IMG/VR virus record: IMGVR_UViG_3300045988_088815
Coordinates: 58,691 to 122,690 of that record
Reading direction: 5' to 3' (one strand)
Length of the DNA stretch: 64,000 bases
Source: a virus
Shown piece by piece: positions 3,186-58,810 of this stretch. The position numbers and the translations under genes were made by a program. The notes under the pieces are model-generated. The model did no database searches, was not told where the DNA came from, and saw only the letters and a list, made by a program, of their open reading frames with translations. Position 1 is the stretch's first letter. Each line of letters starts with the position of its first letter.

Positions 3186-4322
3186 ATGATTTCATACAAG
3201 TACAAGCTATATCGGACGAAGAAGACGAAGCATTTGGATAAGATGCTCCGTGAGGCTTGCTATGTTTGGAATCACGCTCTTGCCTTGCAGAAGAGATATT
3301 ATAAGCTGTATCACAAGTACATTCCAAGATTTACTATGTATAAGCATTTCTCTAAGTGTTATAAACCAACATTGCTTAATTGTCAAACAGTTAGGGAGGT
3401 GTTGGATAGATTGGATATATCTTACAAGCGTTTCTTCAAGCATGATGCGAAGCGTCCACCAAAATTTAAGAAAGCAATAGAATTTGGTTCATTTGCCTTT
3501 CAACAAAATGGCTATTCCCTTAGTGGAAACGAGTTTGTGATAAACAAGATAAAGAAGTCATTTAAGTTCTCTCTGAGCCGTCCCTACGATGGTAAGGTCA
3601 AGAGGGTGTCGGTCAAGCGAAACAAGTTGGGCGAGTACTTTATCGTCCTTTGCTTAGACAAGCAAGCCGAGTCTTACGGAAAGTCACATGATGGTGCATC
3701 CGTGGGCATCGACTTTGGATTGAAGAAGTACATGACTTTGAGCGATGGGCGTGAGATTGATAATCCTCAGTTCCTTAAAACTGACTTGTTGGAGCTTAGA
3801 CGCAGGTCTCGCAACCTCTCGAAGTGCAAGAAGGGCAGCAATAACCGCAAGCGCAAGAAGCTGGAGTTGGAGCGATTGTATCAAAACATCGTGAACAAGC
3901 GTTCCGATTTCCAGTGGAAGATGGCGCATGAGTTGTGCAAGCGTTATGACTTGATTTGCTTGGAGGATTTGAACTTGGAGGGAATGAAGCGTAATTGGGG
4001 ACGCAAGATGTCTGACTTGGCTCATGGCGATTTCGTTGTGAAGTTGGAACACGTTGCGAAAAAATATGGCGTTCAGGTTCATAAGATTGACCGATTCTTC
4101 CCTTCGAGCCGCCTTTGTACTTGTGGTTATAAGAATGATAAGCTGTCATTGAGTGATAGGGTTTGGACTTGTCCTATTTGTGGTGCAGTTCATCCTAGAG
4201 ACCTCTTTGCAGCTGAGAATATACTTCGGCAGGGCATTGCCGAATTGGGTAGTGGTAGTAAGCCGTCCGAGCAATCGCAAGGGTGCAGCCACGTTAGTCA
4301 CCCAACAATTCCTTGCAAGTAG
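3186..4322 (+). CDS. tnpB: TnpB RNA-guided endonuclease (IS200/IS605 OrfB family)
   Basis: RuvC-I VGIDFGL, RuvC-II CLEDLNL, Zn ribbon CTCG..WTCPICG, RuvC-III HPRDLFAAENI; typical N-terminus YKYKLY. Confidence 0.9.
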   Translation: MISYKYKLYRTKKTKHLDKMLREACYVWNHALALQKRYYKLYHKYIPRFTMYKHFSKCYKPTLLNCQTVREVLDRLDISYKRFFKHDAKRPPKFKKAIEFGSFAFQQNGYSLSGNEFVINKIKKSFKFSLSRPYDGKVKRVSVKRNKLGEYFIVLCLDKQAESYGKSHDGASVGIDFGLKKYMTLSDGREIDNPQFLKTDLLELRRRSRNLSKCKKGSNNRKRKKLELERLYQNIVNKRSDFQWKMAHELCKRYDLICLEDLNLEGMKRNWGRKMSDLAHGDFVVKLEHVAKKYGVQVHKIDRFFPSSRLCTCGYKNDKLSLSDRVWTCPICGAVHPRDLFAAENILRQGIAELGSGSKPSEQSQGCSHVSHPTIPCK

Positions 4323-7723: not shown

Positions 7724-8113
7724 ATGGCACAGAAATATATTGAAGATGACTTTGTGATGACAAGAACAGAGCCAAACAACTTTACACCAAATGGTGTTGT
7801 TTGTAAGTTTGTTGACTATGAAACAATAGACAAAGTGTTATTAAGAGCGATTAATGGCATTGATGGATTTATTGTAGAAAAAGGTCAGTTTGTTCCTATT
7901 CCTCTTACCCCATCCATTCTAGAGAAGAATGGATGGGAACATAAGGACGATATATATTTCAAGGAATTTCCACACCGAAAGCTTGTAATCATGGATGAGA
8001 ATGCATATATAATCAATGAATGTTGTTCGATGTTTCTTTGTCCAGCCAAGTTTGTTCCACAACTCCAGCACCTTCTCTTCGGTCTTGGTCTTAATCACAA
8101 AATGGAGGTGTAG
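7724..8113 (+). CDS. hypothetical phage protein, paralog of 57689-58156
   Basis: shared PIPLT..ILEKNGW and C-terminus QLQHLLFGLGLNHKMEV. Confidence 0.6.
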   Translation: MAQKYIEDDFVMTRTEPNNFTPNGVVCKFVDYETIDKVLLRAINGIDGFIVEKGQFVPIPLTPSILEKNGWEHKDDIYFKEFPHRKLVIMDENAYIINECCSMFLCPAKFVPQLQHLLFGLGLNHKMEV

Positions 8114-8115
8114 GT

Positions 8116-8256
8116 ATGGATGCAATGTTTCAAGTTTGTAAATATTGCAAGCATGCAAAACCAACTGAAACAGATTTACTTTATTGTGAGATTTGGAAAC
8201 GGAAGGTATGTGAGCATGAAAGTTGTGACGGAGATTCTGAAAACTATTTTGAATAA
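8116..8256 (+). CDS. small Cys-rich (zinc-ribbon-like) protein
   Basis: manual ORF; CKYC...C..W..KVCEHESC; GGAGG upstream. Confidence 0.4.
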   Translation: MDAMFQVCKYCKHAKPTETDLLYCEIWKRKVCEHESCDGDSENYFE

Positions 8257-8291
8257 GTTTATAACGCCTTCAGACATAAATAAATAGTAAT

Positions 8292-8423
8292 ATGAATGCA
8301 ACAGAAGCAAAGAAGACGCTATTTGAGATTAGAAAAAATCTTATTGACGATAAGCAGAAGCATGCTATTTGGTTAGCAATCAAAGCTATTGATTATTGTA
8401 TAAGATTGAGGAAAGGATATTAA
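8292..8423 (+). CDS. small hypothetical protein
   Basis: manual ORF; ATAAATA-N9-ATG context. Confidence 0.4.
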   Translation: MNATEAKKTLFEIRKNLIDDKQKHAIWLAIKAIDYCIRLRKGY

Positions 8424-8434
8424 CAGATAGTAAT

Positions 8435-8587
8435 ATGAAAGCAAGTGAGTTGATAGAGCATTTAAAATCTTACATTGACATCACGGGTGGAGATTGTGAA
8501 GTACTTGTATTTGATAAAGCAGATATTTCTTGTGATATTAAGAATACTTCTACAGATGGTGATTATATATTTCTACACATCATCTGA
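8435..8587 (+). CDS. small hypothetical protein
   Basis: ORF track 8396-8587; ATG at 8435 after TAGTAAT. Confidence 0.45.
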   Translation: MKASELIEHLKSYIDITGGDCEVLVFDKADISCDIKNTSTDGDYIFLHII

Positions 8588-8621
8588 TAAATACACAACG
8601 AAGACACCAGAGTAAATAACT

Positions 8622-8642
8622 ATCCCTTATGGGATATAAATA
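8622..8642 (+). promoter_or_regulatory. stem-loop plus TATAAATA motif 8 nt before the ATG
   Basis: ATCCC-ttat-GGGAT then TATAAATA. Confidence 0.5.
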
Positions 8643-8650
8643 TAAGTAAT

Positions 8651-8830
8651 ATGGTAGTATTGTTAACGATTTTAGGAACTATCTTTCTGATAGTTAGTGC
8701 AATATTTTGGTCAGAAACGCCAAAGTTGAGAACAGTAAGTATTGTAATTGCGACAGTGGCAGCAATACTTATGACCTTATGTTATGTAGGCTCTGTGCTT
8801 GCACAATATATGATAGAATTTACGAAATAA
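8651..8830 (+). CDS. small membrane protein (2 predicted TM helices)
   Basis: manual ORF, 59 aa, two hydrophobic helices. Confidence 0.45.
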   Translation: MVVLLTILGTIFLIVSAIFWSETPKLRTVSIVIATVAAILMTLCYVGSVLAQYMIEFTK

Positions 8831-8840
8831 TTAACTAACC

Positions 8841-8861
8841 ATCCTGCAAGGGATATAAATA
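8841..8861 (+). promoter_or_regulatory. stem-loop plus TATAAATA motif 9 nt before the ATG
   Basis: ATCC-tgcaag-GGAT then TATAAATA; left border of the radical-SAM cassette. Confidence 0.5.
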
Positions 8862-8870
8862 GAAGAGAAT

Positions 8871-9653
8871 ATGAAGGAATTAAGAAAGAAAACATTTAAG
8901 AATGGTGTCGTGTATTGCCTTCAATTAGAAGATGGTTTCCTTGTTGAAACGACAGATACATTCTTGCCTTATTACACCAAAGATGCAATAGGCAGACATC
9001 AGAATAAGCTCGACAACAATGAGCTTGGCGACCGCACGGAACGTTGGATGATAGGAGTATCTACAATGAGTGGGTGTCCAGTAAGATGCAAGTTCTGTGC
9101 TACAGGCAACATGAAACGTTATCGCAATCTTACGGCAGAAGAAATTGTTGAACAGGTTGAATTTGCCATCAACAAGGCAGGTGCTGACCCAAGCAAAGCA
9201 AAAGAGTTTAAGATTAACTATACTCGTATGGGCGAGCCATTCCTCAATATTGATGCAGTCAAGGATGCTATCCGCATTATTACTGAGAAATACCCAAATA
9301 CTCATCATTACGTATCAACGATTGGCATTAAGGGAAGCGATTTCTCTTTCATTAAGGGAAATATTACGTTACAGATTAGCTTACATTCATTTGATGATGA
9401 CAAGCGTAATTGGTTGATTCCTTACAAGAACAAGATGACTATTCAAGAGTTAGGTCAGATTCGCACAGAAAGCAATCTGAAGACTACAATCAATCTTACA
9501 CTTGTTGACACTTCCGATTTTGATGCAGAAAAGCTGAAAAAATGGTTTGATAAGGAGCATTTCTTCGTGAAGTTGTCTCCTATTAATGTGAATAACATAT
9601 CAGAGAAAAATCACCTCGGCAATGGTGTTGTAGAAGGAATTAATTTAGTATGA
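8871..9653 (+). CDS. RlmN/Cfr-like (class A) radical-SAM methylase core, lacking the C-terminal Cys loop
   Basis: SGCPVRCKFCATG cluster loop (C69/C73/C76), RMGEPFLN, VSTIG, LQISLHSFDDDKRNWLIP and KLSPINVN, all colinear with RlmN. Confidence 0.75.
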   Translation: MKELRKKTFKNGVVYCLQLEDGFLVETTDTFLPYYTKDAIGRHQNKLDNNELGDRTERWMIGVSTMSGCPVRCKFCATGNMKRYRNLTAEEIVEQVEFAINKAGADPSKAKEFKINYTRMGEPFLNIDAVKDAIRIITEKYPNTHHYVSTIGIKGSDFSFIKGNITLQISLHSFDDDKRNWLIPYKNKMTIQELGQIRTESNLKTTINLTLVDTSDFDAEKLKKWFDKEHFFVKLSPINVNNISEKNHLGNGVVEGINLV

Positions 9654-10417
9654 AAAAGGGTATTTTCAGATATAGAATTATCACAAATCTGAATTGCAAC
9701 ATGAACGAAAGTACAGGAGTAAACGGAAATTGTTACTTCTGCTACCAAAAGTTTAAGTCACCATTGCGACTGGATTGTGATAAGATGGAGGAAACTTTGA
9801 AGAAGGTTGGTGTTCTGAAAAGAGCAACTATCATGGGAGGCGAAAGCTTGCTCAATCCAGATTTGGTAAAGATTGTAAAGATAGTCAGCAACTATACATC
9901 TGATGGTATCTGTCTTGTTACAAATGGAATACTGCTTAATGAGGACATCATCGTTGCATTGAAAGATGCCGGATTAACTGAGGTTGCTATCAGCGTGTCT
10001 TCTATCGAACAGTACGAAAGACGTAGAGATATGGCACTTCTGTGTAAGGAGATTATTCCAAACACAAGAATAAACATTCCTAAGTGCAAGGAAAGTTTGA
10101 ATCCACAACTACTGAAAACAATACTATCAGATGGTTTCTATAGCATTGTATGCGAAGATTTACAGGCAAGGTATGGTGAGATAAGACTCCCAGATGGTTC
10201 TGTAAAGGTTGGTGATGACGGATATGGATTCTATGATTACAAGTGGAATGGACATACATTTGGAGTATTTGGCAATTATGGGAAGTACAACAGAAGCGAT
10301 ATTATCATAACTCCTCTTGGAAATTTCTGTGATTGGGAAAAGTATTGCAAGGCCGTTAAGAACAATGAGCTTGTAAGAAGAAATAATCATATTGATGATG
10401 ACAAAATTGTGCATTGA
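9650..10417 (+). CDS. radical-SAM protein with atypical CX11CX2C cluster motif
   Basis: NCNMNESTGVNGNCYFC, IMGGESLLNP (GGE motif), LVTNG; ATGA-coupled to the upstream gene. Confidence 0.65.
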   Translation: MKKGIFRYRIITNLNCNMNESTGVNGNCYFCYQKFKSPLRLDCDKMEETLKKVGVLKRATIMGGESLLNPDLVKIVKIVSNYTSDGICLVTNGILLNEDIIVALKDAGLTEVAISVSSIEQYERRRDMALLCKEIIPNTRINIPKCKESLNPQLLKTILSDGFYSIVCEDLQARYGEIRLPDGSVKVGDDGYGFYDYKWNGHTFGVFGNYGKYNRSDIIITPLGNFCDWEKYCKAVKNNELVRRNNHIDDDKIVH

Positions 10418-10838
10418 TTTCGGAAGTGGCTATAATCCAAAGGCTGGATATAAAACTTGCGATATAACAACCTTTCCACAATTGGATTTTCAGTATGATG
10501 GGAAAGATGAGATTGTCGGTCTTAGAGAAAAATCAGTAGATGTATTTTATCTAAGAAACGTTGTTCATCATATCCCAGATTTACAGAGAACTTTTATAAC
10601 CTTGAAGAAGTATCTGAAGGTAGGTGGGAAGCTAGTTATCATTGATTGCAATAAAGGTCATTATAAGACAAATGTATTTCTTGACAATTTATGGTATAGA
10701 TTTGTTGGCAATAACAACGAAATCTTTATCAGTAAACAGTATAGAGATTACATTAACGTTTTGATAAAGTTAGGTTTTAAGCAATTATATTATAAATCAT
10801 TTAAAGAAAAGGAGATTACTAAGTATGAATGCAATTAA
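10392..10838 (+). CDS. class I SAM-dependent methyltransferase
   Basis: motif I IDFGSG, LRNVVHHI, LKVGGKLVI. Confidence 0.7.
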   Translation: MMMTKLCIDFGSGYNPKAGYKTCDITTFPQLDFQYDGKDEIVGLREKSVDVFYLRNVVHHIPDLQRTFITLKKYLKVGGKLVIIDCNKGHYKTNVFLDNLWYRFVGNNNEIFISKQYRDYINVLIKLGFKQLYYKSFKEKEITKYECN

Positions 10839-10944
10839 GAATCAATTGGAAAAGATGGGCTACGATTATGCAGTAGCAATCGCAACAAAGGCTGAAATTG
10901 AGAATGGAGCTGCTTGTGGTCAGCTCGCTATTATTTGTGAGTAA
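10825..10944 (+). CDS. 39-aa peptide matching the RlmN/Cfr C-terminal catalytic-Cys loop
   Basis: manual ORF MNAIKNQLEKMGYDYAVAIATKAEIENGAACGQLAIICE; GAACGQLA matches the RlmN DAACGQLA loop; overlaps the methyltransferase stop. Confidence 0.55.
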   Translation: MNAIKNQLEKMGYDYAVAIATKAEIENGAACGQLAIICE

Positions 10945-10955
10945 GTAATTAACCA

Positions 10956-10981
10956 CCCTCTCCTTGGCAACAGGGAGAGGG
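10956..10981 (+). other. intergenic stem-loop closing the radical-SAM cassette
   Basis: CCCTCTCC-loop-GGAGAGGG; homologous copy at about 59026-59052. Confidence 0.6.
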
Positions 10982-10996
10982 TAAAAAGAAGAGAAT

Positions 10997-11293
10997 ATGG
11001 ACTTAGTAATTACAATATTAGGTTGGATTGCATTAGGTGTTATATCTGCTTATCTGTTAGCAATAGTAGGTAAAATAATCTTTGATGCTGCAACCGCTGA
11101 TTATAAGTTATACAAGCATGTAAGATTGTGTCGCAAGAGATTGCTAAGACAGCGATATGAAGATTATGCTTGGCTATTATTCCAGTTAGAGAAAGATACG
11201 AAAGTTTTCAATCTTACTCATAATACAAGAGATTGGACTTTTGAAGATTGGAGAGAATTTTATCTTAAAAAAGCTAAGGAGGATAAGCTATGA
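10997..11293 (+). CDS. membrane-anchored hypothetical protein
   Basis: ORF track; N-terminal TM helix. Confidence 0.55.
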   Translation: MDLVITILGWIALGVISAYLLAIVGKIIFDAATADYKLYKHVRLCRKRLLRQRYEDYAWLLFQLEKDTKVFNLTHNTRDWTFEDWREFYLKKAKEDKL

Positions 11294-11424
11294 CTATAAC
11301 AATACCAATGTGGCTACTATATGTCGTAGGAGGCATTGTAGCAATCGTATTATTATTTTGTTCGTATGTTGGAATAATTTTTCTGTGGGGTTTTTATGAC
11401 CCTTTTAAAAAATTTAGAAAATGA
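11290..11424 (+). CDS. small membrane protein
   Basis: manual ORF; ATGA overlaps on both sides. Confidence 0.4.
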   Translation: MTITIPMWLLYVVGGIVAIVLLFCSYVGIIFLWGFYDPFKKFRK

Positions 11425-11564
11425 ACAAAGATAAAGCAATAGTTCACATTAATAATGTTTCCAAGATGATTGGCTCAAAAAGAATAAAATTAAGTGAAGG
11501 CACTACAATTTATATTCAAAACGAGTTAGTCTTGGCACTTAAAGAGTTGGAGATTAAAGTTTGA
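11421..11564 (+). CDS. small hypothetical protein
   Basis: manual ORF. Confidence 0.4.
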   Translation: MNKDKAIVHINNVSKMIGSKRIKLSEGTTIYIQNELVLALKELEIKV

Positions 11565-11848
11565 TGAAGAAAATTTATATGATTATAAGAATTTTAACTT
11601 GTAAGAAAGTTATTCTTATCTCAGAGTTAAGTAAAAATTCCTATAAAGTATCCTTTGGTGGTTTATATGAGATTGAAGCAACTAGGGTTCTTAGAAATAT
11701 TATTTTAACAAGGAATAGTATGGATAAAGAATTTATAAAAGGTCAGCTTAAAAGTGCTTTGTTTTGGCTCAATACGTCAAATACAAAGAAGAACATCTTG
11801 CATGCTAAAGATAGTATAAATATGGCAATTAAAGAGTTGGAGGACTAA
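11564..11848 (+). CDS. hypothetical phage protein
   Basis: ORF track 11561-11848; ATG at 11564. Confidence 0.5.
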   Translation: MKKIYMIIRILTCKKVILISELSKNSYKVSFGGLYEIEATRVLRNIILTRNSMDKEFIKGQLKSALFWLNTSNTKKNILHAKDSINMAIKELED

Positions 11849-11849
11849 T

Positions 11850-12053
11850 ATGACAAAGCAAGAAGCAATGGCTTTCGCTATCAGCGTAGGAAAGCCGATA
11901 AGGCACAACTCATTCTCAAAAGGTGAGTTTGTTCGATATGAAGGAAAGGAGTTAGTTGATGAAGAAGGAACTATCCTTCCTCAACAAGAGTTTTGGGCTA
12001 TCCGTTCAGGTGGCTCTTGGGAGAATGGATGGGAAGAATATAATGATAATTGA
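11850..12053 (+). CDS. hypothetical phage protein
   Basis: ORF track; GGAGG upstream. Confidence 0.5.
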   Translation: MTKQEAMAFAISVGKPIRHNSFSKGEFVRYEGKELVDEEGTILPQQEFWAIRSGGSWENGWEEYNDN

Positions 12054-12055
12054 TT

Positions 12056-12226
12056 ATGACAAGAGAAGAATTACAAAATAAACATGGCGATGCTATCTGT
12101 GAGTATTGTAACAAGAACATTATCTCAGAATATAACATCGGCATAGGTTGGCTTTGCGAAGGTCAGTATTGTGAGGAAGCACAAGATGGCTACGCAGCAG
12201 AAAATAACATAGAGTTGGAGGATTGA
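12056..12226 (+). CDS. small Cys-rich protein, paralog of 60113-60280
   Basis: manual ORF MTREELQNKHGDAICEYC..CEGQYCEE..IELED. Confidence 0.5.
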   Translation: MTREELQNKHGDAICEYCNKNIISEYNIGIGWLCEGQYCEEAQDGYAAENNIELED

Positions 12227-12228
12227 TT

Positions 12229-12570
12229 ATGATACAAAAACAGACATGGAAGGATGAAATCAGAATTTTAATAACTGATGAAGAAAATCATGGCTCTGTT
12301 CAAATATCCATTCCATTATATGTTAGTGATATTTTCGGCAAGGCTGATGCTCTAATATACGCTCTTTGGGTTGATGTTGTTTATAGAAGAAATGGTGTTG
12401 CACAACGCCTGTTACAACTCGCAGAACAACAGGCTAAGTTAAATGGGGTGAAGACAATCGGATTGGAATTTGATAAAGATGAATCTGATAGATTTGTTCT
12501 AGATTGGTATCTCCGTAGTGGTTATAAATCATTTGATAAGAAAAGTAATTTATTAATTAAAAAAATATAG
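12229..12570 (+). CDS. GNAT-family N-acetyltransferase
   Basis: motif A VYRRNGVAQRLL; about 113 aa. Confidence 0.6.
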   Translation: MIQKQTWKDEIRILITDEENHGSVQISIPLYVSDIFGKADALIYALWVDVVYRRNGVAQRLLQLAEQQAKLNGVKTIGLEFDKDESDRFVLDWYLRSGYKSFDKKSNLLIKKI

Positions 12571-25070: not shown

Positions 25071-28000
25071 ATGGCAGAATTAAGATTCGATGTCAAAGCG
25101 AATTTCGAGGAGGTTACGAAACTTCGTTCCGAGTGTGAAAAGTTGAGGGCTGAGTTATTGAAGACCAATAAGTCTACCGACCCAGCTATTGTTGCGGATT
25201 TGACGGAAAAATATGCGGATGCTAGCAATCGCTTAAAGGACTTGACACAAGCTGCTTCAAGAGCCGCTTACGTGATGTCTTCCGAGTTTAATAAGAAGAT
25301 GCAAGCAGCCGCAAGGGAAGTTTATAGCTATGAACTTCAAATGCAAGCTACCAAAGACCGAATAGAGAAAATCCAACAGCAAATCACGAACAAGAGATTA
25401 ACTCTTGGAGTTACAACGGATAAGTCATCCATAGATTCTTTACAGAAGAATATTGACTATTTAAAAGGCTCTTTGGCAGGTCAAACAGCTCAGTTGAAGA
25501 ACTTAGAAGGGGGTGCTGTCGGTGCTCGTCAGACCTTGGAGAATATGCGGAATGAGTATGTTTTGTATGCAGGTTCAGCAAATCCGGCAAAAGAGGCAAC
25601 AAATATGTTGACCGATAGCATGAGCCAAATGATAGAACGTATGAAGTCAGCTCCGACTGCTGGAGAAGGAATGACTAGTTTGTTCCAAAGAGTTACTGGC
25701 GATGCTCACATGCTTTCGGCAACATTACTTGGTGGCTTAGGATTTGAACAACTGGCAGGTAGTATCTTTAATACTCGTTCCCAATTCCAGCAACTTGAAA
25801 TATCTTTCAATACCATGCTTGGTAGTGCGGATAAGTCTAAGCAATTGATGGACGAACTTATCCAAACGGCAGCTCATACACCTTTCGATATGTCCAGCAT
25901 TACGGGTGGCGCAAAACAACTTTTGGCATACGGAACGGAAGCGAAAGATGTTAACAAAACCCTTGTCCAGCTTGGTGACATTGCTTCGGGCTTGAACATT
26001 CCGCTTGGAGAACTTGTTTATCTTTATGGAACGACCGTTTCGCAAGGAAGAATGTTCACAATGGATTTGCGTCAGTTCATGGGTAGAGGTGTCCCATTAG
26101 CAGAAGAATTGGGTAAAATCTTACACCAAAACACAACGGAGGTTCAAGAGTCTGTTTCCAAGGGTAAAGTGACATCAGACATCTTCAAGGAAGCTATCGC
26201 CAACATGACGCAAGCAGGTGGACGCTTCGGAGGCTTGATGGAGCAACAATCAAAGACATTGGAGGGTCAGTGGAGTAACATTGGCGATTCCATCCAGCAA
26301 GCGTTCAACGAAATCGGCAAAAAATCCGAGGGCGTGTTCTCTAGTGGATTGTCAATTATTTCTGCTATGGTAGAGAATTGGCAAGAGGTAATAAAAGTTA
26401 TTGGTGTAGCTACAATAGCTGTTGGTTCTTATCGTGCATCGTTAATGGCGGCTGCTTCTATTCGCAAAGCTGAGGAAGCGCAACAAGCCGATGATATGAT
26501 GAAGGGAATTGATGCAGAAATCAAGCGTTTGCAAGACCTAGAGAACTCAAACTACAAGTCGCTGGGTAAGGACAAAAAGCAAGAGCGAGTAAGCAAACAA
26601 CAAGACTTGGCAAGTATTGTTGGAGATACTGCTGTGTCCGATGACTTTGTAAAGGCAAGGTTAGATGCAGCCGAGCAAGAGGGCGTTATTTCGGCACAAA
26701 TGCGTTCCCAACTAGAGACGAAACGTGAACTTTTACAGGCTCAGCAACAAGCAACAGCACAAAGCCAGATAGAACTTGATGAAGAAAAAAGAAAGACCGA
26801 GGAACTTCGTCAACAAAAAATAGAGTCTCTTAAAGATGATTTGAAGACTACTACGGAGAAAATATCAAATCTTGATGATAGGGATGTAGAGTTGGCTAGA
26901 CAATATACATCAGCTTTGAATGATTTACAAGATGCCCAAGATGCCTTTGCTGAGGCTCAAAAATTGGTTGAGGAAACTGCTGGTGGCGCAAACTTGGCTT
27001 TTGATGCAGAGGGTAATGCCGTGAATGCGCTAGAAGCAAAAGAACGTTTGGAAACGGCAACAAAACAAGTGAATGCTGCTCAAACAAAGATTTCGACCAT
27101 TGAAAGCGAACGTAAGACGATTGCTCAAACAAAGGAGAATTTAAGTAAGCAACAGGCTACGATACAAAATAATATTAACACTGTTTCTCAAGCTTCCAAT
27201 ACCACTGCAAAGAAAGCTGGGATATTGGCGACAACAACAGCCACTATCAAAAATGCGCTTTATGCAGCAGGTACAAAATATACGACTACGGTAGTTAATC
27301 TTTTTTCTAGTGCGGTAAGAAGTAGTGGAAATGCCTTGAAGAGTTTATGGGCGGCAATGGCTGCTAATCCGATAGGTGCATTGATAACACTGGGAACAAC
27401 TTTGTATTCCGTATTTTCTATGTTTGGAGACGAGACTGAAGAAATTTCGGCAGATACAACACATTTTGGGGAAACAACAAGTTTGACCAGTAAAAAGGTT
27501 GAGACATTGATGAATGTGTTGAGAAATACGAATGAAAGTACTGATGCACATAAAAAAGCAAAAGATGAACTTATTGGGGTATATGAACAATATGGAATAA
27601 AATGCGACAATGAAAAGGATAATTTGGAAACGTTGAAAAATAAGCATGACGCTTTTATTGCTTCTTTACAATTAGAAAATGCTGAACGAGAAAAAGCTAA
27701 CGCTTTGATGTCTATATCTTCTCAATATGAGGAAGCAAGGAAAAACCTAGATAAGGATTTTTCTGATTCACTAGGTGGTAGTTGGCTTGATTTCGGACAA
27801 CATATTGATAAAGAAGACATATCAGCTGTACAGATGATGTTTAATTCACTTGTTTCTGATGATGCGTTGACTAAGATAGACTCTTTAAGGCAGAAAATGG
27901 ATTCCGCAAAGAAAGGAACATTGGAATATGCTAATGCCGCACAAGAATACGATGCTGCTCTTCGCAACCTGTTAGTTCCTTTTGAGGAATGGGGTAAGAA

Positions 28001-31000
28001 GATGGGGTACAATAGTTTCGTGATGGCAAGTTTGCGAAGTTCGATATTAAAGCATATAGATAGTATAAACTCTTTGAATGAAAGTTACAAAAAGGCAGAG
28101 GACGCAATATATAAAGGAAGCACAGCGACTGTTGATTGGAATAACTCCCAAGCAAAGGCTCGTTGGATAGTAAACAAGAACAAGCAATCAATCCAAGAAT
28201 TGGTAGAGCAAACTGATAATCTTATCAATTTATGGAATAAAGAATATGGGTTGAATTTAAAAATTCATTATGATGATTCGGAAATTCCAAATTGGATGAA
28301 ATCTATGACAACGAAGGAGTTGCGAAATTTAATTTCAAGGAGAGAGGCGGATATTTTACAACAGGAAAATCACGAAAAGAAAACTGGGCATAAGTTGGTA
28401 ACACGTTCAGGAGGTAAGTTTAGGTCAAGAACGGAAAACCAAACGGATGTCGCAATGGCGAAATCTATAATTCAATCACGTATACCAAAGAGTAGTACAA
28501 CAACAAAATCAAATACAGCCCATACTACTCCAAAGAAAACAGGTACAACGGATGACCCACAAGCAAGAGCGTATGAACGCAAGAAGGCTGAGGAGGACTA
28601 TTCCAAGTCTATTTCATCCTATTCGGAGAAAGCTATCCAAGATATGACCAAGAATCGCATCAATGCGATGAATGAGGGTTATAGCAAGGAATTGGCTCAG
28701 ATTACCGAGAATGCCGACAAGGAGAAAAAAGCGGTAGAAGATGGTATAGACAAATTGGTTGAGGCTAGGAAAAAGCGTGACCAAGCTGTTTGGGTTAATT
28801 CCGGCAAGGGTCGTAAGGCTAATATGTGGAAACAGAGCAAAACCAATGAAGAGTACAAGAATGAGGTTTTGAATGAAACCATGAAGGATAGCAAGGGTAA
28901 TCCGGTTAAGGTCAATGGTATGAATATGACCATAGGCATGAGTGTTGCTAATCAGATGAATGCAATTCGCGATAAGGCGGTAAAGCAGAATGAGGATGTG
29001 CTTGCTAAAGAAGCGCAAAGCATGTACGATTATCTGAAGACTTATGGCACATTCCAGGAGCAGAAGTTAGCTATTGCTGCCGATTATGCTAAGAGGATTA
29101 GCGAGGTTGAAAACTCTACGGATTCGGACTCAAGCAAGCAATGGAAGATAAAGTCTTTGAAAGAAGAGCAGAAGAAAGAGACGGATTCGGTTGAGGCTAG
29201 TGCTATTATGCAGAAGATAGACTGGTATCAAGTCTTCGGAAATGTTGGTGGCATTATGAAAGATGCGCTTGTTCCTTTATTGGCAGATCTGGATAAGTTC
29301 GTAGGTACGGATAAGTTCCAAAATTTGGGTGCAGACCAGCAGAAGAGTATCGTTGATGCTATGCAGAATATCCGTAATTCGATTGGCAATACAAGTGATT
29401 TAGGTTGGAAAGACCTTGCAAGGGATGTTGTTGCTTATCAGGATGCTCTGAAGAATGCGAAAATTGCACAAGAGGAATACACGAAAACGGAAACTTTGCT
29501 TATACCTCGTATTAAGGTTTTGCAAGAACAGATTGAGAGTGCGAAAAAGTCGGGCAATGTTGCAGAGCAAACAAGGCTACAAGAAGAATTGAATAAAGTT
29601 CAAGGTCAGTTAGCGGAGTCCGGAAAGAAGATTGTTACGGCTAACACAAAAGTTCGTACTAGTGGTCAGAAGTTGGCTCAAACGACACAGAATGTGACAC
29701 AACCGATTTCCGCTATCCATGAGTTCCTTTCTACTTCTGGACTATCCGATTTGGCATCTCTTTGGGATAGTTTTGACCAACTTAAAGGTGGAATTGACGG
29801 ATTGAAAGCTTTAAAGGAGGCTAAAAATGCGGCTGACGGACTGAAGGATATGGGTAAGGAAGCCGCAGATGCAGCCGCAGCCGCTGGCAAGAAAGCTGGC
29901 GATGCGCTAAGTGAAGGATTGTCAAAAGCCGGACTTATAGGCCAAATTGTTGCTGCCATTTTGAAGATACTTGATGTTTTGAAGGATGGTATCGGAACAT
30001 TGATTAGCAGCTTGATTGATACAGTTCTGAATGCGGTCAATGGTATATTGAAGAACATTCTAAGTGGTGAGTTTATCACACAGATAGGAGGGTCTTTGGT
30101 AAGCGGTATCGGTAATATTCTCAATACAATCTCGTTTGGTGGCTTCAATAGTTTGTTTGGAGTAGGTGGAAACGCAAAAGAAGTAAACCGGACTATAGAC
30201 AAATTGACGGCTAGGAATGAAATCTTGACGGATGCAATAGACAGATTACGTGACTCTATAGACAAGACTAGTGGTATCAAAGCCGTAGAAGACTCAGAAA
30301 AAGCTGAAAAACTTCAAAAGGAAAAAGAGCAAAACCTAAAGGACATCATGGTGGCACAAATGGGTTATCATGGCTCTCATGGAAGTTTTAACCGTTATTT
30401 CCGAGGATTTTCGCAAGAGCAAATCAATAAGGTGTCTGAAGCGATAGGTAGACAATGGAATGGAAACCTAAGCGACATACGGTCTGCTGATGAAGCTAAT
30501 GCGTTGTTGCAAAATCCTGATATTGTTAACAAGATTCAGAACACTGGTAAGGGAAATTATGGAGGAAGAGTCCTCGAAAAGTTGAAAGATTATGCGGCTG
30601 AGGCAGGAACATTAGAGGATATTGCTGATGACCTAGCAGAAAGCTTGACGCAAATATCTTTTGATAGTTTGAAGAGCGAGTTCATAGATACTTTGATGGA
30701 TATGAATTCCTCTGCTCAGGACTTCTCTGATAATTTCTCCAAGATGCTTATGCAAGCCGTTCTGAAAGCTAAGGTAGATGATTTGTTGGGTAATGATATG
30801 CAAGCATTCTATGATGAGTGGACGGAGCGAGCTAAGGCAAATGGTGGCAAATTGTCTCAGACGGATATTAATGAATTGAAGGGAAGGTACGATGAAATGG
30901 TTCAAGAAGGACTGAAGATTAGAGATGAAGTAGCCGAAATAACTGGTTACAAGCAATCTTACGAGCAGTCTGCGTCTTCCGGTTCTTTTGAATCCATGAG

Positions 31001-31334
31001 CCAAGATACAGGAGAAGAGTTGAATGGTCGTTTTACAGCGGTGCAGATCGCCACAGAGGGAACGTATGAGGAAGCAAAGCTCATAAATACCAAGTTGGAT
31101 GCTATTGCGGCTCGTGATGGTGGCGCAGAGGGTAGCTTACTAACAGCTAGCGTGAATACTATTATGGGTAATGTAGGCAATATTTGGTTAGCCGTTGATG
31201 AGGGAAGAACTATTCTTGCCCAAAGTCTGATGTACTTGCAGTCGATTGATGAGCGACAAGAGCGATGGCATAAGCCTATGTTGCAAGCATTCAATGATAT
31301 ACACGAATTGAAAGATAAAATGAGTAGATTGTAA
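25071..31334 (+). CDS. tail tape measure protein (2087 aa)
   Basis: TMP core ..FNTMLGSADKSKQLMDELIQTAAHTPFDMSSITGGAKQLLAYG..LGDIASGL..DLRQFMGRGVPLAEELG; long coiled coils; Gly-rich hydrophobic segment. Confidence 0.85.
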   Translation: MAELRFDVKANFEEVTKLRSECEKLRAELLKTNKSTDPAIVADLTEKYADASNRLKDLTQAASRAAYVMSSEFNKKMQAAAREVYSYELQMQATKDRIEKIQQQITNKRLTLGVTTDKSSIDSLQKNIDYLKGSLAGQTAQLKNLEGGAVGARQTLENMRNEYVLYAGSANPAKEATNMLTDSMSQMIERMKSAPTAGEGMTSLFQRVTGDAHMLSATLLGGLGFEQLAGSIFNTRSQFQQLEISFNTMLGSADKSKQLMDELIQTAAHTPFDMSSITGGAKQLLAYGTEAKDVNKTLVQLGDIASGLNIPLGELVYLYGTTVSQGRMFTMDLRQFMGRGVPLAEELGKILHQNTTEVQESVSKGKVTSDIFKEAIANMTQAGGRFGGLMEQQSKTLEGQWSNIGDSIQQAFNEIGKKSEGVFSSGLSIISAMVENWQEVIKVIGVATIAVGSYRASLMAAASIRKAEEAQQADDMMKGIDAEIKRLQDLENSNYKSLGKDKKQERVSKQQDLASIVGDTAVSDDFVKARLDAAEQEGVISAQMRSQLETKRELLQAQQQATAQSQIELDEEKRKTEELRQQKIESLKDDLKTTTEKISNLDDRDVELARQYTSALNDLQDAQDAFAEAQKLVEETAGGANLAFDAEGNAVNALEAKERLETATKQVNAAQTKISTIESERKTIAQTKENLSKQQATIQNNINTVSQASNTTAKKAGILATTTATIKNALYAAGTKYTTTVVNLFSSAVRSSGNALKSLWAAMAANPIGALITLGTTLYSVFSMFGDETEEISADTTHFGETTSLTSKKVETLMNVLRNTNESTDAHKKAKDELIGVYEQYGIKCDNEKDNLETLKNKHDAFIASLQLENAEREKANALMSISSQYEEARKNLDKDFSDSLGGSWLDFGQHIDKEDISAVQMMFNSLVSDDALTKIDSLRQKMDSAKKGTLEYANAAQEYDAALRNLLVPFEEWGKKMGYNSFVMASLRSSILKHIDSINSLNESYKKAEDAIYKGSTATVDWNNSQAKARWIVNKNKQSIQELVEQTDNLINLWNKEYGLNLKIHYDDSEIPNWMKSMTTKELRNLISRREADILQQENHEKKTGHKLVTRSGGKFRSRTENQTDVAMAKSIIQSRIPKSSTTTKSNTAHTTPKKTGTTDDPQARAYERKKAEEDYSKSISSYSEKAIQDMTKNRINAMNEGYSKELAQITENADKEKKAVEDGIDKLVEARKKRDQAVWVNSGKGRKANMWKQSKTNEEYKNEVLNETMKDSKGNPVKVNGMNMTIGMSVANQMNAIRDKAVKQNEDVLAKEAQSMYDYLKTYGTFQEQKLAIAADYAKRISEVENSTDSDSSKQWKIKSLKEEQKKETDSVEASAIMQKIDWYQVFGNVGGIMKDALVPLLADLDKFVGTDKFQNLGADQQKSIVDAMQNIRNSIGNTSDLGWKDLARDVVAYQDALKNAKIAQEEYTKTETLLIPRIKVLQEQIESAKKSGNVAEQTRLQEELNKVQGQLAESGKKIVTANTKVRTSGQKLAQTTQNVTQPISAIHEFLSTSGLSDLASLWDSFDQLKGGIDGLKALKEAKNAADGLKDMGKEAADAAAAAGKKAGDALSEGLSKAGLIGQIVAAILKILDVLKDGIGTLISSLIDTVLNAVNGILKNILSGEFITQIGGSLVSGIGNILNTISFGGFNSLFGVGGNAKEVNRTIDKLTARNEILTDAIDRLRDSIDKTSGIKAVEDSEKAEKLQKEKEQNLKDIMVAQMGYHGSHGSFNRYFRGFSQEQINKVSEAIGRQWNGNLSDIRSADEANALLQNPDIVNKIQNTGKGNYGGRVLEKLKDYAAEAGTLEDIADDLAESLTQISFDSLKSEFIDTLMDMNSSAQDFSDNFSKMLMQAVLKAKVDDLLGNDMQAFYDEWTERAKANGGKLSQTDINELKGRYDEMVQEGLKIRDEVAEITGYKQSYEQSASSGSFESMSQDTGEELNGRFTAVQIATEGTYEEAKLINTKLDAIAARDGGAEGSLLTASVNTIMGNVGNIWLAVDEGRTILAQSLMYLQSIDERQERWHKPMLQAFNDIHELKDKMSRL

Positions 31335-37645: not shown

Positions 37646-37718
37646 GCTGCATTAGACAAGTGGTTAAGTCGCCAGCTTTTCACGCTGGTATTCAAAGGTT
37701 CGAATCCTTTATGCAGTA
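37646..37718 (+). tRNA. tRNA-Glu (anticodon TTC)
   Basis: hand-folded cloverleaf: acceptor GCTGCAT/ATGCAGT, anticodon arm CCAGC-TTTTCAC-GCTGG, T arm AAAGG-TTCGAAT-CCTTT. Confidence 0.8.
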
Positions 37719-37728
37719 CATACAAAAT

Positions 37729-37799
37729 TGCCCTATGGTGTAATGGCAACACTACAGTTTTTGGTTCTGTCATTAGTGGTTCGAATCCGCTTGGGGCAA
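37729..37799 (+). tRNA. tRNA-Gln (anticodon TTG)
   Basis: acceptor TGCCCTA/TGGGGCA, anticodon loop TTTTGGT, T loop TTCGAAT. Confidence 0.75.
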
Positions 37800-37829
37800 C
37801 AAGGTGGAATTGGTATATGTTCCACAAAA

Positions 37830-37914
37830 GGTGCGATATTCAAGCGGTTAAAGAAGATAGACTGTAAATCTATTCCCATTGTGGGTTCGGTGAGTTCAAA
37901 TCTCCCTTGCACCA
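37830..37914 (+). tRNA. tRNA-Tyr (anticodon GTA), long variable arm
   Basis: anticodon arm ATAGA-CTGTAAA-TCTAT, variable stem CCCA/TGGG, T loop TTCAAAT, acceptor GGTGCGA/TTGCACC. Confidence 0.8.
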
Positions 37915-37936
37915 CGAGAACTTTTGTCATAATACG

Positions 37937-38009
37937 AGGAATGTAGCTCAGTAGTAGAGCACTTGGTTTGGTAACTAAGGGGGCGTTGGTGCGAATCCAA
38001 TCATTCCTT
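37937..38009 (+). tRNA. non-canonical tRNA (Thr-GGT-like or Pro-TGG-like) with an 18-nt anticodon arm
   Basis: acceptor AGGAATG/CATTCCT, D arm GCTC-AGTAGTA-GAGC, T arm GTTGG-TGCGAAT-CCAAT; anticodon arm CTTGG-TTTGGTAA-CTAAG has an 8-nt loop. Confidence 0.55.
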
Positions 38010-38012
38010 TAC

Positions 38013-38084
38013 GCTTTCGTAGCTCAGTGGCAGAGCATAGGATTTTTAATCCTAGGGTCGAAGGTTCGAATCCTTCCGTTGGCA
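38013..38084 (+). tRNA. tRNA-Lys (anticodon TTT)
   Basis: anticodon arm TAGGA-TTTTTAA-TCCTA, T arm GAAGG-TTCGAAT-CCTTC; two U-U mismatches in the acceptor stem. Confidence 0.7.
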
Positions 38085-38266
38085 CAATGATACACAAGAA
38101 GAGAGCCGTGATGTTTGTTTTGTTGGAATCTCGGACATCTGTCAATGGGCAAACGTAGGATGCAGATGAGACGAATAAAGTTGTGAATAAGTCTATGAAC
38201 TAGGGGAACAAGCGGAATGGCTCTCTATTGTGCTTCATTTGATGGTTTAACGAAAAATTGAAGAAT

Positions 38267-58642: not shown

Positions 58643-58810
58643 ATGAGTAATAGACATTCGTATGAAAGATACGAAATACCAGACATTAAAGGTCGCAAAC
58701 ACGCAGTAGTTCTTTTTTCCGAAAATAGAAGTGTGGTTCATAACGGAATTCCTAGTACTACAATGGGATTTGTAGCTATTGATTTAGATGCAAATACTTA
58801 TAAAGATTAA
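58643..58810 (+). CDS. small hypothetical protein
   Basis: manual ORF, 55 aa. Confidence 0.4.
   Translation: MSNRHSYERYEIPDIKGRKHAVVLFSENRSVVHNGIPSTTMGFVAIDLDANTYKD

Follow-up and report, generated by a model that had tools for sequence, protein, structure and literature searches.

The textbook examples of methylation by way of a protein-bound methylcysteine radical are RlmN and Cfr, the latter a resistance enzyme of clinical importance. RlmN (YfgB of E. coli; TIGR00048; PDB 3RFA and 5HR7) is a class A radical S-adenosylmethionine (SAM) methylase that modifies C2 of A2503 within 23S ribosomal RNA (rRNA) as well as C2 of A37 in transfer RNA (tRNA). Cfr (NF000424, TIGR04432; PDB 9P0P), the antibiotic-resistance methylase that acts on C8 of A2503, shares its fold and its architecture of two SAMs and a carrier cysteine. 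To our knowledge, both catalytic cysteines lie on one chain in every described member of the family. Here we analyse a cassette of four open reading frames (ORFs i to iv) in a 64-kb stretch of DNA from an uncultured gut phage (IMG/VR record IMGVR_UViG_3300045988_088815, positions 58,691 to 122,690); the whole stretch is referred to as the window. ORF i encodes an RlmN/Cfr-like core without a C-terminal tail, and ORF iv a free-standing 39-residue counterpart of that tail. Together they probably constitute a two-polypeptide enzyme derived from a class A (RlmN/Cfr-type) radical SAM methylase.

In RlmN the carrier residue C355 is part of a flexible loop and receives its methyl group from SAM; the methylated C355 is then activated by a 5'-deoxyadenosyl radical, the methylene radical adds to C2 or C8 of adenine, and C118 is indispensable as the base that resolves the covalent enzyme-RNA adduct (PMC9692996). 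C118A RlmN crosslinked to tRNA is represented by PDB entries 5HR6 and 5HR7, which are among the fold matches of a phage core homologue (P0245) described below.

In sequence and fold the phage system is most closely related to RlmN. Its core is a radical SAM barrel with a CX3CX2C motif, its GEP, SLH, R and K..P.N motifs are colinear with those of RlmN, and the C-terminal helix, strand and AACGQL loop with the methyl-carrier cysteine are recognisably the same element. Unlike in RlmN, however, this loop belongs to a separate protein of ~40 amino acids (aa), glycine stands in the place of Cys118, the N-terminal domain of ~100 profile residues is absent, and the phage proteins score about a quarter of the family cutoff. 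Cfr differs from the phage system in carrying both C338 and C105, its counterparts of RlmN C355 and C118, on one chain, and in other respects as RlmN does. Single-chain relatives are also found in phages. Two-cysteine proteins such as that of Stenotrophomonas phage ANB28 (319 aa, ...GGGCGQLW) have the cysteine loop and are without the long N-terminal domain, and one-cysteine proteins (Bacteroides phage Versailles, 335 aa, ...TCGN; metagenomic ...SNCGQ) are also without C118. All of these differ from the window system in being one polypeptide, and no characterised single-chain phage RlmN-like relative was found. In the initial annotation of this DNA no described system of this layout was known; full-text literature searches likewise yielded no publication that describes either a split RlmN/Cfr-like system or this peptide family. 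An undescribed layout in two pieces points to non-standard chemistry.

The core encoded by ORF i

The cassette contains the following genes:

8871-9653, + strand: ORF i, tail-less RlmN/Cfr-like radical SAM core, 260 aa
9650-10417, + strand: ORF ii, small MoaA/twitch-like radical SAM protein, 255 aa
10392-10838, + strand: ORF iii, minimal class-I SAM-dependent methyltransferase, 148 aa, TTG start
10825-10944, + strand: ORF iv, free-standing cysteine-loop protein, 39 aa, MNAIKNQLEKMGYDYAVAIATKAEIENGAACGQLAIICE

These coordinates, and the coupling of the four + strand ORFs, agree with the initial annotation: an ATGA is common to ORFs i and ii, and the overlaps amount to 26 nucleotides (nt) for ii/iii and 14 nt for iii/iv. 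The frame of ORF iii holds further ATGs at 10395 and 10398.

The closest sequence and fold relatives of ORF i are RlmN and Cfr. The protein matched the radical SAM family PF04055 with 45.7 bits (cutoff 29.5), and C69, C73 and C76 form its CX3CX2C [4Fe-4S] cluster motif; the fourth and last of its cysteines is not conserved. The top eight NCBIfam matches were all RlmN, Cfr or RNA methyltransferase models (E 2e-22 to 2e-13), followed by the next family at 1e-5. The best of them, TIGR00048 (79.6 bits, E 2e-22), aligned over profile positions 102-299 of 355. Only 56 residues precede position ~102, so that the N-terminal helical (helix-hairpin-helix-like) RNA-binding domain is missing, and ORF i stops at position ~299, leaving the rest of the profile unmatched. 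HMMER alignments to RlmN structures reproduced the motif matches that had initially been made by eye. In the alignments to 6fz6 and 4pl1, Gly62 stands opposite RlmN C118, pairing with Cys in 6fz6 and with Ala in the C118A crystal form.

The fold assignment comes from P0245, a core homologue whose AlphaFold2 (AF2) model has a predicted local distance difference test (pLDDT) score of 85. Its 11 best PDB matches in a Foldseek search were all RlmN or Cfr (E 2.8e-12 to 1e-7), and the next match had an E value >0.01. Models of maturases for ribosomally made, post-translationally modified peptides (RiPPs) matched ORF i weakly, in the generic cluster region (E 1e-5 to 1e-3), and NCBIfam and Pfam profile searches gave no match of ORF i to a RiPP recognition element (RRE) or SPASM domain. 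A PADLOC search of ORFs i and iv returned no match, and the PHROGs entry for the core family reads 'unknown function'. The calculated isoelectric points are 8.5 for the core (basic) and 4.75 for the peptide (acidic).

The detached cysteine loop encoded by ORF iv

ORF iv is the counterpart of the RlmN/Cfr C-terminal helix, strand and AACGQL cysteine loop, with Cys31 corresponding to RlmN C355. When ORF iv was appended to ORF i, the score rose from 79.6 to 87.2 bits on TIGR00048, from 57.2 to 65.9 on CfrAB (where the alignment reached position 337 of 338), from 56.6 to 64.0 on PRK11194 and from 54.5 to 61.8 on rSAM_Cfr. On these four RlmN/Cfr models the real tail thus gained 7.4-8.7 bits and extended the alignments to the C-terminal cysteine motif. 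In contrast, ten control tails (nine shuffled, one reversed) changed scores by only -0.5 to +3.5 bits (79.1-79.7 bits with TIGR00048, 56.7-60.7 with CfrAB) and in no case reached the motif. The i+iv fusion is colinear with RlmN 6fz6 through AACGQL, the peptide spanning helix, strand and loop with one 2-residue indel. These profile searches had been proposed in the initial annotation; RlmN/Cfr models came out best for both ORF i and the fusion.

The ORF iv peptide is under strong purifying selection, as was also to be checked according to the initial annotation. Across 31 distinct nucleotide versions of the 39-codon ORF the ratio of non-synonymous to synonymous substitution rates (dN/dS) was 0.05 at a mean dS of 1.08, and synonymous changes occurred at nearly every invariant codon, Cys31 included. 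Peptide alignment A1 is invariant at G12, A18, A20, T21, E24, A29, A30, C31, G32 and Q33. Cys31 is kept in 31 of the 31 distinct 39-aa versions analysed, and C38, the second cysteine of the window peptide, is not conserved. The peptide is absent from the four annotation libraries searched; the Joint Genome Institute (JGI) pipeline labels several ~40-aa homologues 'adenine C2-methylase RlmN'.

Occurrence of the core and peptide pair

A core together with a free peptide occurs in Kehishuvirus tikkala (Bacteroides), Moorella phage MTATph1, Pectobacterium phages Arno18 and Arno162, Yersinia phage P778 and Vibrio phage D479, cultured phages whose hosts span three bacterial phyla. Protein databases contain at least 2134 core homologues. 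Among those listed, all that cover the C-terminus end in ...EG(I/V)NL(V/I), and the longer entries have N-terminal extensions only. Peptide homologues number at least 2886, nearly all of them 39-48 aa long, and there are over 1000 natural pairs of core and peptide.

We surveyed 77 diverse loci from IMG/VR, from genomes and metagenome-assembled genomes, and from phage records. In most of these the core comes with the peptide, and the doubt attached to the initial annotation, that the small ORF might prove unconserved in homologous cassettes, is thereby answered. It was not found at four loci with ~33% core identity, at L307 (a partial core match), at L284 (with only 721 nt of downstream flank) or at L185 (1.7 kb of downstream flank). 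Comparisons of distant phage pairs gave higher conservation for the peptide than for the core (54% versus 43% for the Moorella phage). The closest contig in the genome collection, from a Segatella copri isolate assembly, has 97% core identity and the same four-gene layout. An IMG/VR scan with the Arno18 core as query gave no match, and a scan with alignment A3 retrieved the same close relatives and nothing further. A truncated RlmN/Cfr-type core with a detached cysteine tail, the central proposal of the initial annotation, is consequently borne out as a split that is conserved and selected in many unrelated phages.

Layout variants, fusions and inserts

At most loci surveyed the peptide gene starts ~15-60 nt after the stop codon of the core gene. 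The window clade and several clades of deep divergence have ORFs ii and iii between core and peptide, and the search for the same four-gene layout that had been suggested at the outset also found the i-ii-iii-iv order in L310, an 89.6-kb environmental contig, and in L311. The initial annotation had two SAM enzymes separating the pieces, which is correct for the window; as a defining layout it does not hold, ORFs ii and iii being optional. In L310 (731-3194) NUDIX and NAMPT/NAPRTase (NAD salvage) genes lie directly upstream of the cassette.

The relative position of the two pieces is flexible. In L294 and L281 the peptide gene is upstream of the core gene, and in P0245 (L089:44-991; two Logan contigs) a linker of ~25 residues joins the peptide module to the core's N-terminus as a fusion. 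In the AF2 model this module forms a helix and a short strand that is paired (pLDDT 70-80), and the cysteine loop after them is disordered. The arrangement amounts to a circular-permutation-like layout relative to RlmN. Downstream of P0245, L089 has a different 239-aa radical SAM gene and a 51-aa cysteine-rich ORF. The peptide can also be duplicated: Vibrio phage D479 (L084:3800-4081), P0121 and P0122 have two tandem peptide modules per ORF of 76-93 aa (...AGAACGQMAILDE VKEAGFDAGLAIATDAEVDAGAACGQMAILEDA). Partial internal duplications of the peptide module were seen in P0123 and P0124. The reading frame of ORF iv relative to ORF i varies, with an offset of 2 in L001 and L042 and of 0 in L002, and an Rfam search of window positions 8000-12000 found no intron or ribozyme family.

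Other genes occupy the space between core and peptide at several loci. A GIY-YIG-like ORF lies there in L174 (5792-6607), an HNH_3 domain is found just upstream in P0004, and SegE-type GIY-YIG genes occur near ORF ii homologues; the window itself has no mobile endonuclease gene at the split point. This pattern suggests that the core/peptide junction is a hotspot for mobile-gene insertion. Arno18 (L003:4879-5157) and Yersinia phage P778 (L085:3878-4150) share a conserved 90-92-aa ORF in this position. The peptides of Arno18 (Ounavirinae) and of the related P778 carry a C-terminal extension of 25-30 aa; in P778 a TerC gene and then TerD-like genes follow downstream, and Arno18 has an ORF of similar size in the place of TerC. 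In L079 (4783-6000), L081 (4883-6100) and L179 (4327-5884) the slot is filled by other genes, namely one or two proteins of ~111-116 aa whose Cys/Ser/Gly-rich tails end in Cys, and then a radical SAM protein of 288-299 aa (31% identity between L079 and L179). The insert looks like a RiPP precursor and its maturase placed in the slot of ORFs ii and iii.

Relatives and evolution of the family

We compared library representatives with enough sequence after the cluster motif. All cores with Gly at the C118 position are without a fused CGQ tail, and across tail-less cores this Gly is nearly invariant. Most cores with Cys at the position carry a fused GGGCGQLW-type tail, and in a third group the residue is I, T, V or N and a fused ...SNCGQ tail is present. 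In a crude neighbour-joining tree, rooted on E. coli RlmN and without support values, the two-cysteine enzymes are basal, the tail-less cores form one clade and the one-cysteine fused enzymes are its sister. Based on this topology, the sequences suggest that C118 may have been lost first and the tail detached once, later. A second tail-less subfamily (...KIGVSL.SGC..GC.YCFT, 258-284 aa; P0296, P0319, P0321, P0327, P0329, P0334, P0337, P0342, P0352, P0354 and P0358) likewise lacks a CGQ tail and carries Gly in the place of C118. The split persists down to ~36-38% core identity with no C-terminal re-fusion. The system represents a large unannotated phage family in which one catalytic cysteine has been lost and the other resides on a separate protein of ~40 residues.

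The accessory ORFs ii and iii

ORF ii had been recognised in the initial annotation as a second radical SAM protein and ORF iii as a class-I methyltransferase, and profile searches agreed on both (for ORF ii, 50.7 bits on PF04055, where the cutoff is 29.5; for ORF iii, 28.3 bits on PF08241, where it is 21.2, and E 7.5e-27 for phrog_5399). Motif I of ORF iii, IDFGSGYN, lies at its N-terminus. The closest relative of ORF ii is MoaA, the GTP 3',8-cyclase, which acts on a purine nucleotide; this relationship concerns ORF ii only, and ORF ii is ~75 residues shorter. MoaA and viperin models match the N-terminal half of ORF ii only, the MoaA models scoring 45-50 bits against cutoffs of 231-325. In the AF2 model (pLDDT 90.6) the best PDB fold match was MoaA (E 1.5e-9, TMq 0.67), over the full length and with template modelling (TM) scores of 0.5-0.67. 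Further fold matches were SpeY and BtrN (twitch enzymes), SuiB and SkfB (RiPP maturases) and viperin-like enzymes. ORF ii showed no similarity by BLASTP to the second radical SAM protein of L089.

The cluster motif of ORF ii is CX11CX2C (C16, C28 and C31; window 9695-9745), with an 8-residue loop insertion, CNMNESTGVNGNCYFC. In alignment A6 distant family members have CX3CX2C and intermediate members CX5CX2C, from which CX3CX2C appears to be the ancestral motif and the 8-residue insertion a feature of the window lineage. Three further cysteines, C88, C168 and C233, are invariant in the family and could bind an auxiliary cluster.

The ORF ii family comprises about 98 clusters, and two of the three distant members examined lie in the same four-gene layout. 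Homologues located between core and peptide have 39-64% identity. ORF iii is present at every locus that has ORF ii and enough flank, and where both were found they lie between core and peptide, except in L079. Because the two travel together and are placed between core and peptide, we regard them as functionally linked accessories; they form an optional but old module.

Proposed mechanism and alternatives

ORF i provides the radical SAM barrel and the [4Fe-4S] motif that cleaves SAM, ORF iv comprises the helix, strand and loop in detached form, and the two are co-inherited. There is no second conserved cysteine in either core or peptide, so the pair has one catalytic cysteine and it is supplied in trans. 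Of the class A methylase in two pieces proposed in the initial annotation, the division into core and tail stands; its canonical form does not, C118 being Gly and the RNA-binding domain absent. Since C118 and the N-terminal RNA-binding domain are both lacking, methylase chemistry is only inferred.

The peptide would dock on the core by helix and strand complementation and so place Cys31 in the active site, where a first SAM would donate a methyl group to its sulfur. A second SAM would supply the 5'-deoxyadenosyl radical that abstracts a hydrogen atom from the methylated Cys31, and the thiomethylene radical formed in this way would add to an sp2 carbon of the substrate. By analogy with RlmN and Cfr, the most plausible substrate is a purine, whether in RNA, in DNA or in a nucleotide. 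The resulting thioether adduct should not be resolvable in the manner of RlmN because the second cysteine is absent from both proteins. A dissociable peptide could instead leave the core, either linked to the substrate or after handover, and the core could turn over, with release or further processing of the adduct falling to another factor. Where present, the proteins of ORFs ii and iii are candidate factors that might load, resolve or elaborate the adduct.

As the most likely consequence of the split we tentatively favour a dissociable peptide that serves as a methyl or methylene carrier. A carrier or co-substrate agrees better than a neutral split with the tandem duplication of the peptide, its own Shine-Dalgarno-like site, its stronger conservation and the flexible gene order. 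A purely structural split, with another base in place of C118, is a minority possibility of appreciable weight. It is rather unlikely that the peptide is a stoichiometrically consumed, diffusible carrier released in thioether linkage to its purine target; such a peptide-RNA, peptide-DNA or peptide-nucleotide adduct would be either the final product or an intermediate that is trimmed or resolved by partners of the ORF ii/iii type. If the carrier were consumed in this way, radical chemistry would attach a ribosomally made peptide covalently to RNA, DNA or a nucleotide, in a new phage pathway of nucleic-acid or nucleotide modification with a protein-derived co-substrate. The family raises the possibility, open to test, that peptides are conjugated to nucleic acids or that a methyl carrier derived from a protein acts as co-substrate, and offers a natural system for separating the class A half-reactions of carrier loading and radical transfer. 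It also suggests a likely role for an ORF of 39-48 aa that is very common in gut phages and escapes most annotation pipelines, and points to a modification made during infection of dominant gut bacteria.

Several results weigh against a two-polypeptide enzyme of this kind. On TIGR00048 the 79.6 bits of ORF i and the 87.2 bits of the fusion compare with a curated cutoff of 290, and both are far below the curated cutoffs of the Cfr models (468-550 bits). The match of the 39-mer to the RlmN/Cfr C-terminal loop, asserted in the initial annotation, holds in the fusion by its gain over shuffled tails and fails for the peptide alone: neither the peptide nor an 11-sequence peptide profile had a significant RlmN/Cfr match in Pfam, NCBIfam, PHROGs or PDB sequences, and an unfiltered local hmmsearch of the profile against E. 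coli RlmN gave 9.4 bits, over AACGQLA only (residues 352-359). Because there is no stand-alone match, the homology of peptide and RlmN rests on context, that is, on the colinear fusion extension with its shuffle control, on gene adjacency and on the natural fusion protein. The single-chain sister clade is also without C118, which implies another ending of the reaction, or chemistry other than methyl transfer, and so weakens the case for a consumed carrier. P0245, as a natural N-terminal fusion, shows that a 1:1 covalent stoichiometry is tolerated. The docking proposal draws on one AF2 model, that of P0245, and activity, complex and modification are all putative.

Genes in pieces are known from phages: nrdA of Aeromonas phage Aeh1 is split by a homing endonuclease gene, and the T4 topoisomerase is divided between gp39 and gp60. 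The present family resembles them in encoding an enzyme as two adjacent ORFs, the products of which presumably reassemble, with endonuclease genes at the junction in some relatives, and its ORFs are colinear with the parts of a single-chain homologue and are both kept by selection. A canonical RlmN/Cfr-like RNA adenine C-methylase might accordingly have been cut by a mobile element and reassemble from its products, an explanation that we regard as plausible, though less likely than not, and take more seriously than any other rival. It would have a tRNA A37 or rRNA target in host or phage, a base other than C118 and a split devoid of mechanistic meaning. Homing-endonuclease-type genes at or near the junction (L174, P0004 and near ORF ii homologues), the colinearity of the i+iv fusion with RlmN and the existence of a natural fusion protein are in its favour, as is the tRNA-Glu(UUC) of the window, which has A at position 37 and is of the type that RlmN modifies in E. 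coli. The window tRNA-Gln has G37, read by eye, and the lead to a tRNA substrate is weak. The simultaneous absence of the N-terminal RNA-binding domain and of the C118 base argues against a canonical enzyme, however, as does the maintenance of the split, with no C-terminal re-fusion, at the core divergence given above. Tandem duplication, variable order and a peptide more conserved than its core would not be expected of a neutral split. Unlike in Aeh1 nrdA and T4 gp39-gp60, the detached piece is ~40 aa long, carries a catalytic residue and is more conserved than the main body; it can be duplicated or lie upstream, and its detachment coincides with loss of the partner cysteine. Joining of i and iv by read-through, frameshifting or splicing, with ii and iii in an intron-like insert, could be imagined from the few tens of nucleotides that separate i and iv in many relatives. 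The varying frame offset and the lack of an Rfam intron in the region searched make such recoding or splicing very unlikely as a general explanation. In addition, ORF iv has its own ATG and AAGGAG, the peptide gene precedes the core in L294 and L281, no ribozyme family was detected in 8000-12000 either, and ORFs ii and iii are conserved, translationally coupled protein genes.

The initial annotation had offered an alternative of its own, in which the 39-mer is a RiPP-like substrate, modified by the core (with ii and iii where present) to give the product. We disfavour this reading as improbable, since the peptide is conserved over its whole length, instead of having a leader and a variable core, and shows both homology and colinearity to a part that is integral to the RlmN fold. 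The resemblance to such systems is nonetheless evident: as in SuiA/SuiB and SkfA/SkfB, a small gene for a cysteine-containing peptide lies beside radical SAM genes, here one or two enzymes of this class and a methyltransferase; ORF ii shares its fold class with the maturases SuiB and SkfB; tandem peptide copies occur in some phages; and the slot in L079, L081 and L179 holds small cysteine-rich proteins with a further radical SAM enzyme. Unlike SuiA and SkfA, the phage peptide is a fragment of an enzyme fold and can even be fused to the enzyme itself (P0245). No leader/core division was seen, no SPASM- or RRE-specific family, protease or exporter was detected in the cassette, and the immediate neighbours include no protease or exporter. 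Decay, in which ORF i is a fragment of a full-length rlmN-like gene and the 39-aa ORF a chance or relic frame, would be compatible with the low RlmN/Cfr scores and with a peptide that is not significant alone. This case, named in the initial annotation as one that would overturn it, is so improbable that we consider it ruled out by the conservation data, namely the numbers of core and peptide homologues with the common C-terminal end of the listed cores, the peptide dN/dS of 0.05 and the retention of the pair in phages of three bacterial phyla.

Flanking elements of the cassette

Three further elements lie within or beside the cassette:

10811-10816, + strand: AAGGAG, Shine-Dalgarno-like, 8 nt 5' of the ORF iv ATG, read from the sequence
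10955-10982, + strand: hairpin directly 3' of ORF iv, 12-bp stem, 4-nt loop
8861-8873, + strand: 13-mer AGAAGAGAATATG, running into the ORF i start codon

The AAGGAG and the ATG of ORF iv argue for independent initiation of translation of the peptide. The initial annotation had placed stem-loops on both sides of the cassette. The downstream hairpin is strong (-23.1 kcal/mol, z -5.7, equalled by 0 of 200 shuffles) and probably marks the 3' boundary of the cassette. The upstream one did not stand, having a 5-bp stem of -4.5 kcal/mol that 49 of 200 shuffles fold equally well. The 13-mer AGAAGAGAATATG has a second exact copy at 10987-10999, at the start codon of the next gene, and these are its only two exact matches in the window. 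It brackets the cassette and is a candidate for a shared translation or transcription start element.

The window phage

The phage was first assumed to be crAss-like, Kehishuvirus being the best cultured match for the cassette gene. This assignment was dropped because a 2087-aa ORF (25071-31334) resembles tape-measure proteins, which argues against a crAss-like podovirus: residues ~219-536 share 41% identity with Bacteroides phage tape-measure proteins. A copy at 80% identity is present in the human faecal phage contig MT835576.

ARAGORN predicted five tRNA genes at 37646-38085 (Glu-UUC, Gln-UUG, Tyr-GUA, one unassigned and Lys-UUU). The unassigned gene (37936-38010) was given a 2-base 'gg' anticodon, and its anticodon loop may be unusual. 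The small early-type gene region containing the cassette is flanked by a D12-class N6-adenine DNA methyltransferase (1801-2526) and a small GNAT acetyltransferase (12223-12570). A TnpB/IS605 OrfB-type protein of 378 aa, with OrfB_IS605, Cas12f1-like TNB and helix-turn-helix (HTH) domains, is encoded at 3186-4322, ~4.5 kb upstream of the cassette.

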